Shown: piece after piece, positions 1,343 through 4,215 of the stretch | Layout: the number at the start of each line of letters is the position of its first letter | Numbering within the stretch: position 1 is the stretch's first letter | From: Escherichia phage Qbeta | Sequence record: NC_001890.1 | Reading direction: 5' to 3' (one strand) | DNA: 4,215 nucleotides | Program-made: the position numbers and the translations under genes | The notes under the pieces: generated by a model | Told to the model about the DNA's origin: nothing | The model's input: only the letters and a program-made list of their open reading frames with translations | Databases searched by the model: none

Positions 1343-1744
1343 ATGGCTAAATTACAAGCTATCACTTTAAGTGGTATTGGGAAGAACGGTGACGTTACTC
1401 TGAACCTCAACCCGCGTGGGGTAAATCCCACCAACGGTGTTGCCGCGCTTTCAGAAGCGGGTGCAGTTCCTGCATTGGAGAAGCGTGTTACAATTTCTGT
1501 ATCACAGCCTTCTCGCAATCGTAAGAACTACAAAGTTCAGGTAAAGATCCAGAACCCAACCTCTTGCACTGCAAGCGGTACTTGTGACCCTTCAGTTACT
1601 CGTTCGGCTTATGCTGACGTGACGTTCTCGTTCACGCAGTACAGCACTGATGAGGAACGTGCACTCGTACGAACAGAGCTTAAAGCCCTGTTGGCGGATC
1701 CAATGCTTATCGATGCTATCGATAACTTGAATCCGGCGTACTGA
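1343..1744 (+). CDS. cp: Major coat protein, 133 aa, ending at a leaky UGA
   Basis: ORF MAKLQAITLSGIGKNGDVTLNLNPRGVNPTNGV...QYSTDEERALVRTELKALLADPMLIDAIDNLNPAY. It is near-identical in length to the Qbeta coat protein as I recall it (MAKLETVTLGNIGKDGKQTLVLNPRGVNPTNGV...NPAY), with several recognisable blocks shared. It is the second gene in the canonical order and terminates at TGA 1742-1744 followed by A. Confidence 0.97.
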   Translation: MAKLQAITLSGIGKNGDVTLNLNPRGVNPTNGVAALSEAGAVPALEKRVTISVSQPSRNRKNYKVQVKIQNPTSCTASGTCDPSVTRSAYADVTFSFTQYSTDEERALVRTELKALLADPMLIDAIDNLNPAY

Positions 1745-2332
1745 ACTGCACTTCTTGGTGATGGCTCAGGGCCTAGCCCTGTACCGGGTCCTAATCCGGA
1801 CCCGCCACTGGAGCCGCCGCCAGGGACAGGTAGTTATACCTGTCCTTTCCGTATATGGGATCTTTCCAGCATTTATGAAGCTGCGAATAGTTCCCACTCG
1901 TGGGATATCTATAACGCTGTCGAACTCAGTCCTCGCAAATTTGACGTTACCCTTGATGACCTCTTGGGTAACACAGATTGGCGCGATTGGGACGGCAGAC
2001 TTAGGTATACCACGTTTCGCGGTAGCCGAGGTAACGGATACATTGACCTTGACGCCACTTCGTTGATGCAGGATGAATATCTTACATCTTCGAAGTATTT
2101 AGTGCGTGAGGGGAAACGTCCCGGTGCTTTCGGTTCAATTGAACGGTTTGTTTATCTTAAATCGATAAACGCATACTGTTCTCTTAGCGATATTACGGCC
2201 TACCACTCCGACGGAGTGGTAGTTGGCTTTTGGCGCGACCCGTCAAGCGGGGGAGCCATACCATTCGACTTTAGCGAGTTTGATTCGAACAAATGTCCGA
2301 TCCAAGCCGTTATTGTCGTTCCTCGTCTTTAG
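1343..2332 (+). CDS. A1: A1 read-through protein (coat plus C-terminal extension, about 329 aa), made by occasional suppression of the coat UGA at 1742-1744; a minor capsid protein needed for infectivity
   Basis: Codon-by-codon reading shows the frame stays open from the coat UGA (1742-1744) to TAG at 2330-2332, followed by an in-frame TAA at 2333-2335 (tandem stops). The 122-aa ORF 1964..2332 in the track is in the same frame (1343 and 1964 are both congruent to 2 mod 3) and is the distal part of this extension. The extension reads TALLGDGSGPSPVPGPNPDPPLEPPPGTGSYTCPF...GNGYIDLDAT...GAFGSIERFVYLKSINAYCSLSDITAYHSDGVVVGFWRDPSSGGAIPFDF...KCPIQAVIVVPRL, which matches the Qbeta A1 extension as I recall it. 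A 329-aa total equals the Qbeta A1 length. Confidence 0.92.
1742..1744 (+). other. Leaky UGA termination codon of the coat gene (programmed read-through site; context UAC-UGA-A)
   Basis: TGA at 1742-1744 followed by A at 1745 and 195 further sense codons in frame. In Qbeta the coat UGA is read as Trp at a low percentage to give A1 (established knowledge). Confidence 0.88.
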
Positions 2333-2338
2333 TAACTA

Positions 2339-2344
2339 AAGGAG
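2339..2344 (+). promoter_or_regulatory. Shine-Dalgarno AAGGAG for the replicase gene, 6 nt upstream of ATG 2351
   Basis: aaggag at 2339-2344, spacer atctgc, ATG 2351-2353; read directly from the sequence. Confidence 0.75.
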
Positions 2345-2346
2345 AT

Positions 2347-2368
2347 CTGCATGTCAAAGACACTGCAG
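2347..2368 (+). promoter_or_regulatory. Putative translational operator hairpin spanning the replicase start codon (coat-protein binding site that represses replicase translation, and likely packaging signal)
   Basis: CTGCAUGUC-AAA-GACACUGCAG folds by eye as a 5-bp lower stem (2347-2351 with 2364-2368), a single unpaired C2363, a 4-bp upper stem (2352-2355 with 2359-2362) and a 3-nt AAA loop, with the replicase AUG (2351-2353) inside the 5' arm. The Qbeta operator (AUGCAUGUCUAAGACAGCAU as I recall it) is also a 3-nt-loop hairpin with one bulge containing the replicase AUG. Confidence 0.75.
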
Positions 2369-4111
2369 TCGCGTAAGTCGCTTAGCGGAAAACTCCGCCG
2401 CGCTGCGAACACAAGAATCGTGGTTGAAGGTAACCTCGCACTGTCTATCGCGAATGATCTATTATCCGCGCTAGATGTAGAACCGTTTAATTCGGAAGAA
2501 GACTGTATAAGTCGTTCACCGAAATTCGGCATCTCACCAGATCAATTTAGGAATTCCTATCTTCGTGCTGAGATAATGTCGAAGTACGATTCTTTTAGCC
2601 TAGGTATTAATACCGAAGCCGTAGCATGGGAAAAGTTCCTAGCTGCGGAGGCTGAGTGTGCTAAGACGAATCTGAGACTCTATAGGCCTAACTACAATGA
2701 GGATTTCAATTTCTCATTGGGTGAGACATGTATTCACATGGCTCGCCGAAAAATAGTTAAGCTATTAGGAGATTCAGTTCCGTTTGAGGCTGTGTTGCGA
2801 CATTGCCGGTTTTCCGGCGGTGCCACAACAACGAATAGCCGTCTATACGGCCATCCGTCCTTCAAGTTTGCTCTTGCGCAAGAGTGTACCCCACGGGCTG
2901 TTCCATATGTGCAAGCTTTAAAGGCCTGTACAAACATGGACCTTGGTATTACCAAGGTTAGCCCTTTCAATAAAGCAGTTACTGTACCAAAGAACAGTAA
3001 AACTGATCGCTGCATCGCTATCGAGCCAGGCTGGAATATGTTTTTCCAGTTGGGCATTGGTGGCGTAATTCGCGAAAAGTTGCACTTGTGGAATATCGAC
3101 CTGAATGATCAGACGATTAACCAGGTGCGCGCATATTCAGGCAGCTGTAGCAATGAACTTGCTACAGTGGATCTCTCGAGCGCGAGTGATACTATTTCGC
3201 TTGCGCTCGTTGAGCTCCTGCTACCCCCTGCGTGGTTTAAAGTCCTTACGGACCTTAGGTCACGAAGGGGTATGTTGCCAGACGGTAGAATCATTACCTA
3301 TGAGAAAATTTCCTCAATGGGTAACGGTTTCACCTTCGAGCTCGAGTCGCTTATATTTGCAGCTCTTGCTCGGTCTTTATGCGAGTTACTGAACTTACAA
3401 CCGTCGAGTGTCACGGTCTATGGCGATGATATTATATTGCCATCAGACGCGTGCAGCTCGTTGATTGAAGTTTTCTCCTACGTAGGTTTTAGAACCAACG
3501 AGAAGAAGACCTTTTTCGACGGGCCGTTCCGAGAGTCGTGCGGAAAGCACTACTTTATGGGCGTTGACGTCACACCTTTCTACATACGCCACCGTATAGT
3601 GAGTCCCTCTGATCTCATACTGGTTTTGAACCAGATGTATCGTTGGGCCACGATTGATGGCGTATGGGATCCTAGGGTATATCCTGTATACACCAAGTAC
3701 AGACGTCTGCTGCCGGATATTCTCCGCAGAAATGTCGTACCTGATGGATATGGTGATGGTGCCCTCGTCGGATCTGTCCTTACCAGTCCTTTCGCAGAAA
3801 ATCGCGGTTGGGTTCGGCGTGTGCCGATGATAATTGACAAGAAGAAAGACCGAGTGCGTGACGAGCGTGGTTCATATCTCTATGAACTATGGTCGTTACA
3901 GCAGCTCGAATGTGACAGTGAGTTCCCGTTCAACGGGTCGCTGGTTGTTGGTACCAACGATGGAGTTTGCACTTACCGACACCGAGAGCGGGTTTCTACC
4001 GCTATCAGTGATTCGGTTGGCGCATACGACATCGTATGGATACCGTGCAGTAGTCGTGTCCTGGCTCCCTACGGGGACTTCCGGAGGCACGAAGGTTCTA
4101 TCCTAAAATAG
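2351..4111 (+). CDS. rep: RNA-dependent RNA polymerase, replicase beta subunit, 586 aa
   Basis: Longest ORF, last in the canonical order, ATG 2351 to TAG 4109-4111. It contains the catalytic YGDD motif (TVYGDDIILPSD; YGDD encoded at 3419-3430) and the other palm-domain blocks recalled from the Qbeta replicase (MSKT...LRRAANTRI, CRFSGGATTTN, PFNKAVTVPKNSKTDRCIAIEPGWNMFFQLGIGG, YEKISSMGNGFTFELESLIFA, FRESCGKHY, CSSRVLAPYG). The length is close to the Qbeta beta subunit (about 589 aa). Confidence 0.97.
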   Translation: MSKTLQSRKSLSGKLRRAANTRIVVEGNLALSIANDLLSALDVEPFNSEEDCISRSPKFGISPDQFRNSYLRAEIMSKYDSFSLGINTEAVAWEKFLAAEAECAKTNLRLYRPNYNEDFNFSLGETCIHMARRKIVKLLGDSVPFEAVLRHCRFSGGATTTNSRLYGHPSFKFALAQECTPRAVPYVQALKACTNMDLGITKVSPFNKAVTVPKNSKTDRCIAIEPGWNMFFQLGIGGVIREKLHLWNIDLNDQTINQVRAYSGSCSNELATVDLSSASDTISLALVELLLPPAWFKVLTDLRSRRGMLPDGRIITYEKISSMGNGFTFELESLIFAALARSLCELLNLQPSSVTVYGDDIILPSDACSSLIEVFSYVGFRTNEKKTFFDGPFRESCGKHYFMGVDVTPFYIRHRIVSPSDLILVLNQMYRWATIDGVWDPRVYPVYTKYRRLLPDILRRNVVPDGYGDGALVGSVLTSPFAENRGWVRRVPMIIDKKKDRVRDERGSYLYELWSLQQLECDSEFPFNGSLVVGTNDGVCTYRHRERVSTAISDSVGAYDIVWIPCSSRVLAPYGDFRRHEGSILK

Positions 4112-4215
4112 GGTAGCACCTGGGAGGGGTGCTATACGCACCCTAGGTTAGCAAACTTAAACTAACCTTCTCGAAAGAGAGAGTTGAGGGCTCTGCTTTG
4201 CCCTCACTCCTCCCA
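4112..4215 (+). other. 3' untranslated region with three predicted hairpins and a single-stranded ...CUCCUCCCA-3' tail (replicase initiation end)
   Basis: Exact inverted repeats read from the sequence: 4114-4120 tagcacc with 4128-4134 ggtgcta (7-bp stem, 7-nt loop); 4145-4151 aggttag with 4162-4168 ctaacct (7-bp stem, A-rich 10-nt loop caaacttaaa); 4185-4190 tgaggg with 4201-4206 ccctca (6-bp stem, 10-nt loop). The window ends in CCCA like leviviral genomes. Confidence 0.8.

Follow-up and report, generated by a model that had tools for sequence, protein, structure and literature searches.

The hairpin on the start codon of the replicase gene raises the question of whether an element whose bulge is arranged differently from that of the Qbeta operator is still read by the coat protein in the same way, or whether its recognition has shifted, as the initial annotation of this DNA had proposed. 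The window, that is, the whole stretch of 4215 nt that was analysed, is a complete allolevivirus genome in which the genes follow the order A2, coat, A1 read-through and replicase, as in the Qubevirus type:

56-1321: maturation/lysis protein A2, from the ORF list
1343..1744, plus strand: coat gene (133-aa ORF), coding for the presumed trans-acting repressor of the hairpin
2330-2332: stop codon that ends the coat read-through to A1
2351..4111, plus strand: gene of the replicase beta-subunit, the regulated target (586-aa ORF, AUG at 2351-2353)

In end-to-end alignments, the window shared 88.8% nucleotide identity with M11 and about 75% with the Qbeta isolates. Its replicase is 100% identical to AAC14701.1/NP_046752.1, named 'Qbeta virus (strain MX1)' in UniRef, and therefore we identify the window, by sequence, as the published genome of phage MX1. 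The NCBI label is misleading in this respect, since the MX1 replicase is filed there under 'Escherichia phage Qbeta', with the identity to Qbeta proper given above; this filing explains the differences met by a reader who expects Qbeta. The MX1 sequence has been public since the 1990s, and its operator belongs to a textbook type of element. MX1 and M11 were reportedly sequenced for comparative RNA-structure work.

The sequence at 2347-2368, CUGCAUGUCAAAGACACUGCAG, was folded by RNAfold as (((((((((...)))).))))), a hairpin of 9 bp with an AAA loop in which C2363 is the sole unpaired base of the 3' arm. Exactly this loop and this unpaired C had been drawn by eye in the initial annotation. The free energy is -8.3 kcal/mol and the ensemble frequency of the 9-bp structure is 0.86. 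The lower pairs are C2347-G2368, U2348-A2367, G2349-C2366, C2350-G2365 and A2351-U2364, and the upper pairs are U2352-A2362, G2353-C2361, U2354-A2360 and C2355-G2359, closed by the loop A2356-A2358. The parts of the hairpin are as follows:

2347..2350, plus strand: 5' arm of the lower stem, CUGC, paired with GCAG at 2365-2368; its columns covary across 14 operators
2351..2353, plus strand: replicase start codon AUG (from the ORF), with A2351 (A+1) predicted to pair with U2364 (P = 0.98)
2352..2355, plus strand: 5' arm of the upper stem, UGUC, paired with GACA at 2359-2362; compensatory changes in the relatives L149, L151 and L152
2356..2358, plus strand: 3-nt loop AAA (+6 to +8), in which A2357 corresponds to A+7 and A2358 to A+8 of Qbeta
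2359..2362, plus strand: 3' arm of the upper stem, GACA, from the fold, covariation and pair probabilities
2363..2364, plus strand: two extra pyrimidines CU; C2363 is predicted to bulge and U2364 to pair with A2351
2365..2368, plus strand: 3' arm of the lower stem, GCAG, from the fold, covariation and pair probabilities

The same 9-bp hairpin was the minimum free energy (MFE) structure in contexts of 36, 51 and 101 nt, and all of its pairs kept probabilities of 0.95-1.00 in contexts from 82 to 1222 nt (30 to 600 nt added on each side). The replicase AUG at 2351-2353 is fully paired within the 5' arm in all contexts, which agrees with the proposal that the hairpin sequesters the start codon; a structure freeing the AUG had been named as the result that would speak against it, and the MFE structure keeps the AUG paired, with pair probabilities of at least 0.95. 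The value for the A2351-U2364 pair refers to free RNA and nearest-neighbour energies, under which the conformer with a 1x2 internal loop (A, C and U all unpaired) is 2.4 kcal/mol worse than the A-U pair plus bulge. The hairpin has a z score of -2.89, and 4 of 200 dinucleotide shuffles folded equally well. A search of the whole window on both strands against Rfam 15 (E <= 10) returned no family at the operator region; the four weak matches elsewhere in the window, to miRNA and snoRNA families, are at chance level. In the cDNA, sites for BglII (AGATCT, 2344-2349) and PstI (CTGCAG, 2363-2368) lie beside the hairpin or partly within it, which follows trivially from the palindromic sequence of the stem.

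One nucleotide upstream of this hairpin lies a second one, which involves the ribosome-binding site of the replicase gene:

2323..2345, plus strand: upstream hairpin with a UAA triloop, in the MFE structure
2341..2344, plus strand: Shine-Dalgarno sequence GGAG of the replicase gene, 6 nt upstream of the AUG, read from the sequence and mostly paired in the upstream hairpin

The upstream hairpin reads UC-G-UCUUUAG-UAA-CUAAAGG-A-GA, with most of the GGAG paired in its 3' arm. The UAG stop of A1 at 2330-2332 lies in its stem, and a second in-frame stop, UAA at 2333-2335, forms the triloop, which is operator-like (NAA). Compensatory changes preserve this hairpin in M11, Qbeta, SP and NL95, as well as in the relatives L147, L148, L149 and L152. 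Operator-like hairpins, defined as 4 bp, an irregularity of at most 2 nt, 4 bp and a triloop ending in A, were also found at 619-639, 704-724, 876-895, 2089-2110, 2910-2930 and 4098-4116. In total, the definition gave 10 matches at 7 loci, compared with 4.0 +/- 2.4 in 200 dinucleotide shuffles of the genome; at this shuffled frequency, the placement of one on the replicase AUG by chance is unlikely. It is possible that the further hairpins are coat-contact or packaging stem-loops, as mapped in Qbeta virions.

All Qbeta isolates that were fetched carry AUGCAUGUCUAAGACAGCAU at the replicase start, which folds as ((((.((((...)))))))); the loop is UAA, and the AUG has its A bulged on the 5' arm. 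The same operator sequence is given in PMC12724129. Statements on contacts between coat protein and RNA are taken here from secondary citations. The Qbeta operator had been described in the initial annotation with just this loop and bulge, and the folds of both hairpins confirm that the bulge arrangement of MX1 is unlike it: the bulged A+1 of the 5' arm of Qbeta is paired with U2364 in MX1, whereas C2363 bulges on the 3' arm. The stem of MX1 has therefore 9 bp compared with 8 bp in Qbeta, the extra pair being A2351-U2364, and its free hairpin gains about 2.6 kcal/mol in stability (-8.3 versus -5.7 kcal/mol). The two hairpins also differ in the loop (AAA in MX1, UAA in Qbeta) and in the lower stem (CUGC/GCAG versus AUGC/GCAU). 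In other respects they are alike, since both lie at the identical genomic position on the replicase AUG, share the 4+4 bp arrangement with UGUC/GACA as the upper stem, have A at +7 and +8 of a loop of 3 nt, and are identical in 14 of the first 16 operator nucleotides. The difference arose without an indel in the gene: codons 5-6 are CUG CAG in MX1 and GCA UCU in Qbeta, and these point substitutions, together with those of the 5' flank (CUGC for AUGC), shifted the register of the 3' side of the lower stem by 2 nt.

Most of the features of a Qbeta-type operator are thus found in MX1, namely an AUG within the hairpin, a 3-nt loop, A+8 (A2358) and a stem of about 8 bp with an upper stem of 4 bp; the one that is lacking is the single bulged A+1 on the 5' arm, as A2351 is predicted to be paired. 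On this sequence comparison, we regard the MX1 hairpin as the homologue of the Qbeta replicase operator and as a member of the Qbeta-type family. Witherell & Uhlenbeck (1989) reportedly found the bulged A dispensable for the binding of the Qbeta coat protein. The key features of the Qbeta operator have been described as the 3-nt loop, the 8-bp stem and the last A of the loop, which is necessary for binding, and both A+7 and A+8 have been reported to contact the coat protein (PMC12724129). According to PMC11724954, which cites Witherell & Uhlenbeck (1989), binding requires a loop of 3 nt and an upper stem of 4 bp, and secondary sources that cite Rumnieks & Tars (2014) place the last adenine of the loop in the adenine pocket of the Qbeta coat protein.

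The replicase-start regions of cultured alloleviviruses (M11, several Qbeta strains, SP, FI strains and NL95) were compared with those of IMG/VR contigs, of contigs coding for replicases 52-89% identical to that of the window, and of two true matches of a metagenome pattern. These two came from a scan of metagenome DNA with the loose pattern AAGGAN{4,6}GCATGYCNAAGAC, which matched at least 120 stretches; among the matches listed, two were alloleviviruses (L119 and L124, by BLAST against the window). A coat-based scan of viral contigs gave four loci, corresponding to SP, FI and two Qbeta-like phages, and the MX1-type operator pattern had no match in the same viral contigs. Outside the MX1/M11 clade, the canonical design has lower and upper stems of 4 bp each, separated by the bulged A of the AUG, and a loop of 3 nt, for instance:

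Qbeta: lower stem AUGC/GCAU, bulge A, upper stem UGUC/GACA, loop UAA
FI (EF068134): lower stem UUGC/GCAA, bulge A, upper stem UGUC/GACA, loop UAA
NL95: lower stem AAGC/GCUU, bulge A, upper stem UGUC/GACA, loop AAA
SP: lower stem UAGC/GCUA, bulge A, upper stem UGCC/GACA, loop AAA
L147: lower stem UACG/CGUA, bulge A, upper stem UGUC/GACA, loop UAA
L149: lower stem ACUG/CAGU, bulge A, upper stem UGAU/AUCA, loop UAA
L152: lower stem UCCU/AGGA, bulge A, upper stem UGGC/GCCA, loop ACA

The group IV phages SP, FI and NL95 resemble MX1 in the 3-nt loop (AAA in SP, NL95 and FI BR8), the 4+4 bp and the covarying lower stems, but they retain the Qbeta-type bulged A on the 5' arm. In the SP records (L003/L015/L021, approximately 2438-2457), AUG is followed by CCA (Pro2), which places a C.A mismatch in the upper stem and makes the predicted hairpin much weaker (-3.7 kcal/mol); FI BR8 and L119, which are close to SP, have UCA and a perfect stem. 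Among more distant relatives, with replicases 47-49% identical, L155 and L156 (replicase starts at 1748 and 2430, respectively) have the hairpin AUGGC-AAA-GCCAU, whose 5 bp include the A of the AUG and which is devoid of a lower stem, and L153 (replicase start at 2309) has a tetraloop hairpin. Two contigs are longer than, or permuted relative to, the genome of about 4.2 kb: in L142 (contig Ga0590761_00208, 5307 nt) the maturation gene is preceded by an additional, partial ORF, and in L155 (4276 nt) the replicase is followed by an ORF. Both look like assembly concatenations of the linear RNA genome.

For covariation, 14 distinct operators were anchored on the AUG, with NN at the two-base insertion, the placement of which was guided by structure; a MAFFT alignment of the bare 20-22-nt hairpins misplaced the 2-nt gap and was discarded in favour of the anchored alignment. 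In the latter, 98.2% of the cells of the 4+4 helix were paired and changes on both sides were seen in 6 of the 8 pairs. The covariation score was reached by none of 500 shuffles, and registers slid by 1-3 columns as a control gave only 17-46% paired cells. Since covariation exceeds both the shuffles and the slid controls, the hairpin is a selected structure and not a coincidence, and the covariation check advised in the initial annotation thus supports the helix by compensatory change. The last position of the loop is A in all 14 operators and the middle one is A in 13 (C in L152), whereas the first varies between U and A.

These data bear on the reading that the hairpin is only a passive block of initiation, or a by-product of coding or of long-range folding, and not a coat site in MX1. 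The stability of the hairpin above that of Qbeta would suit such a role, as would the independent sequestration of the Shine-Dalgarno sequence in the neighbouring hairpin. However, the published requirements of the Qbeta coat protein are matched by the upper stem of 4 bp, the length of the whole stem and a triloop that ends in AA. Compensatory changes have also preserved the architecture in phages with replicases no more than 52-63% identical to that of MX1, and the RNA face of the coat protein is conserved, so that we consider this reading very improbable.

Among the operators sampled, only those of the MX1/M11 clade have two extra pyrimidines (YY) opposite the A of the AUG, between the 3' arms; they are absent from Qbeta, SP, FI, NL95 and L147-L152. 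The junction is CU in the window and in L144, UU in L142, L143, L145 and L146, and UC in M11 and L157; together with the UAA or AAA loops, these junctions make up five distinct natural sequences of the MX1 type. M11 (AF052431), L142-L146 and L157 share with MX1 the CUGC...GCAG lower stem, the two pyrimidines facing A+1 and the dG of -8.3 kcal/mol. The energy model pairs A+1 with whichever U is available and leaves the other pyrimidine bulged, and the position of the bulge therefore varies: in MX1 it lies above the A-U pair, in M11 and L157, unlike MX1, the A-U pair is continuous with the upper stem, which moves the bulged C down by one step, and in L142 and its relatives the UU makes the register ambiguous, with the bulge on either side. 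In this sample, the MX1/M11-type junction is a structural variant confined to the MX1/M11 lineage. No description of it was found in the literature searched, and it may already be drawn in primary structure papers outside that search.

Within the clade, the 4+4 helix and the A opposite YY are constant, and the position of the bulge is not. This is what would be expected if the operator had the same function with another conformation when bound, in which the A2351-U2364 pair opens, A+1 stacks on Tyr89 and C2363 and U2364 form a 2-nt bulge or a 1x2 loop. The alternative conformer costs only 2.4 kcal/mol, Tyr89 is conserved, and stacking of A+1 is reported for Qbeta. The A-U pair is nevertheless formed with high probability in free RNA, and all five variants retain one or more U residues with which the A can pair, although five sequences are too few to prove anything. 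We take the opening of the pair to be a possible but less probable course of events; if true, the conserved unit would be the 4+4 bp with A opposite YY, and the single bulged C would be a feature of the free RNA only.

The coat protein of MX1 is 84% identical to that of Qbeta and 95% to that of M11, and it matches the Qbeta coat structures, including the coat-operator complex 4L8H. Residues 45-69, Asn30, Val32, Tyr89 and Asp91 are the same in MX1 and Qbeta, which gives MX1 a cognate coat protein with the RNA-binding surface of Qbeta, as judged from a list of RNA-facing residues drawn from secondary sources and MS2 homology and not from coordinates. In an alignment of 17 coat proteins, residues specific to the MX1/M11 clade were found only at mature positions 5, 79 and 120, and none in the RNA-binding beta-sheet. 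Co-evolution of the coat protein with the operator was considered and rejected, as all three positions lie off that sheet. An Ile50 variant is shared by one FrSangria-type Qbeta strain.

A shift in specificity, in which the rearranged bulge and the AAA loop would let the MX1 and Qbeta coat proteins discriminate between the operators and so provide an orthogonal pair for RNA tethering, has some observations in its favour. Stacking of the bulged A+1 on a Tyr of one monomer has been reported for the co-crystal of the Qbeta complex, 4L8H (PMC12724129, PMC11724954); as A+1 is predicted to be paired in MX1, this contact would be lost or altered, or else paid for with about 2.4 kcal/mol. The MX1-type stem is, in addition, one pair longer and 2.6 kcal/mol more stable, and directed evolution has indicated that bulges and mismatches in the lower stem tune the affinity of the Qbeta coat protein, mainly through the on-rate, and its selectivity versus the MS2 coat protein (PMC11724954). 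Against this stand the coat protein, whose RNA-binding sheet carries no clade-specific substitution, and the loop, which retains A+7 and A+8 and varies within clades at +6. Position +6 is the third base of Ser codon 2, where a U/A change is synonymous: in the MX1/M11 clade the loop is mostly UAA (as in L144, M11 and L142) and is AAA in the window and L157, and elsewhere it is AAA in FI BR8, NL95, SP and L148 and UAA in FI HB-P24 and FI EF068134. The AAA loop was for this reason rejected as a determinant of specificity. Within the clade, the bulged pyrimidine drifts in position and in identity, being a C on the upper side of the A-U pair in MX1, a C on its lower side in M11 and a U in L142, as would not be expected of a base that is read specifically or contacted precisely.

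In a library of thousands of sites, moreover, the Qbeta coat protein was the most promiscuous of the MS2, PP7 and Qbeta coat proteins; it tolerated a missing or a 2-nt bulge, and C or G in the bulge scored above the wild-type A (PMC7952577). Neither the altered coat/operator specificity nor the orthogonal tethering pair that the initial annotation had foreseen is thus supported by the loop, the coat protein or the published bulge tolerance. A shifted specificity is in our opinion improbable and orthogonality of the MX1 and Qbeta pairs unlikely, while it is very likely that the Qbeta and MX1 coat proteins would recognise each other's operators.

A smaller effect may be considered separately. 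It is possible that the MX1 junction has a modest quantitative influence on affinity. The more definite proposal, that the MX1/M11-type junction measurably changes recognition, for example through a raised selectivity for Qbeta-type over MS2 coat protein or a changed on-rate, in the manner of engineered C/U irregularities of the lower stem, we hold to be doubtful. The evolved Qbeta-coat aptamer A9 (CRISPR-Hybrid, PMC11724954) resembles the MX1 operator in its UAA-type triloop and in a lower-stem irregularity with unpaired C and U. A9 is, however, a synthetic RNA with a C-U mismatch in place of an A opposite CU, and the likeness, which hints that the MX1 irregularity could modulate selectivity, is one of analogy only. 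If the junction did change recognition, it would offer a natural, better-behaved tethering hairpin for the Qbeta coat protein, and an example in which the RNA partner drifts in architecture while the face of the protein stays fixed.

The operator of MS2/R17 is a hairpin on the replicase start that is bound by a coat dimer; one of its stem bases is unpaired, and an adenine of its loop is essential. MX1 has in common with it the location, the unpaired stem base and the loop adenine, but the MS2 operator, unlike that of MX1, has a 4-nt loop, an upper stem of 2 bp and an essential bulged purine at -10. The MS2 coat protein was intolerant of changes in the bulge (PMC7952577).

Among the explanations weighed, we consider it likely that the MX1 hairpin is the replicase operator in the form of a clade-specific, functionally tolerated variant of the Qbeta type, with an unchanged recognition code. 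Coat binding, repression and a nearly unchanged specificity are inferred for it by analogy with Qbeta. According to this homology, a coat dimer would bind the 3-nt loop, mainly through A2358 (A+8) and A2357 (A+7), together with the stem of 8-9 bp, and would lock the replicase AUG in the helix beside the hairpin that already sequesters the Shine-Dalgarno sequence. Under the Qbeta/MS2 paradigm, accumulated coat protein would then block replicase initiation late in infection, and the complex is probably also a contact or nucleation site of the capsid. The substitutions in codons 5-6 and in the 5' flank would have brought two pyrimidines to face the A of the AUG through the shifted lower-stem register, so that the A may pair with a U and one pyrimidine bulge on the 3' side, which would account for the more stable free hairpin. 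That the extra stability lowers basal initiation or pre-organises the site is speculation.

The significance of these observations is modest, as the junction is a minor structural variant of a known element and not a new system. The natural variants, with CU, UU or UC junctions and UAA or AAA loops, may be usable as candidate tags for the Qbeta coat protein. For the biology of these phages, the comparison indicates that within one species-group the irregularity of the operator has moved to the other strand, with the A of the start codon predicted to be paired and the RNA face of the coat protein unchanged, and that the route of this change was a 2-nt shift of register through point substitutions; this agrees with the view that the Qbeta coat protein reads mainly the loop and the geometry of the stem.
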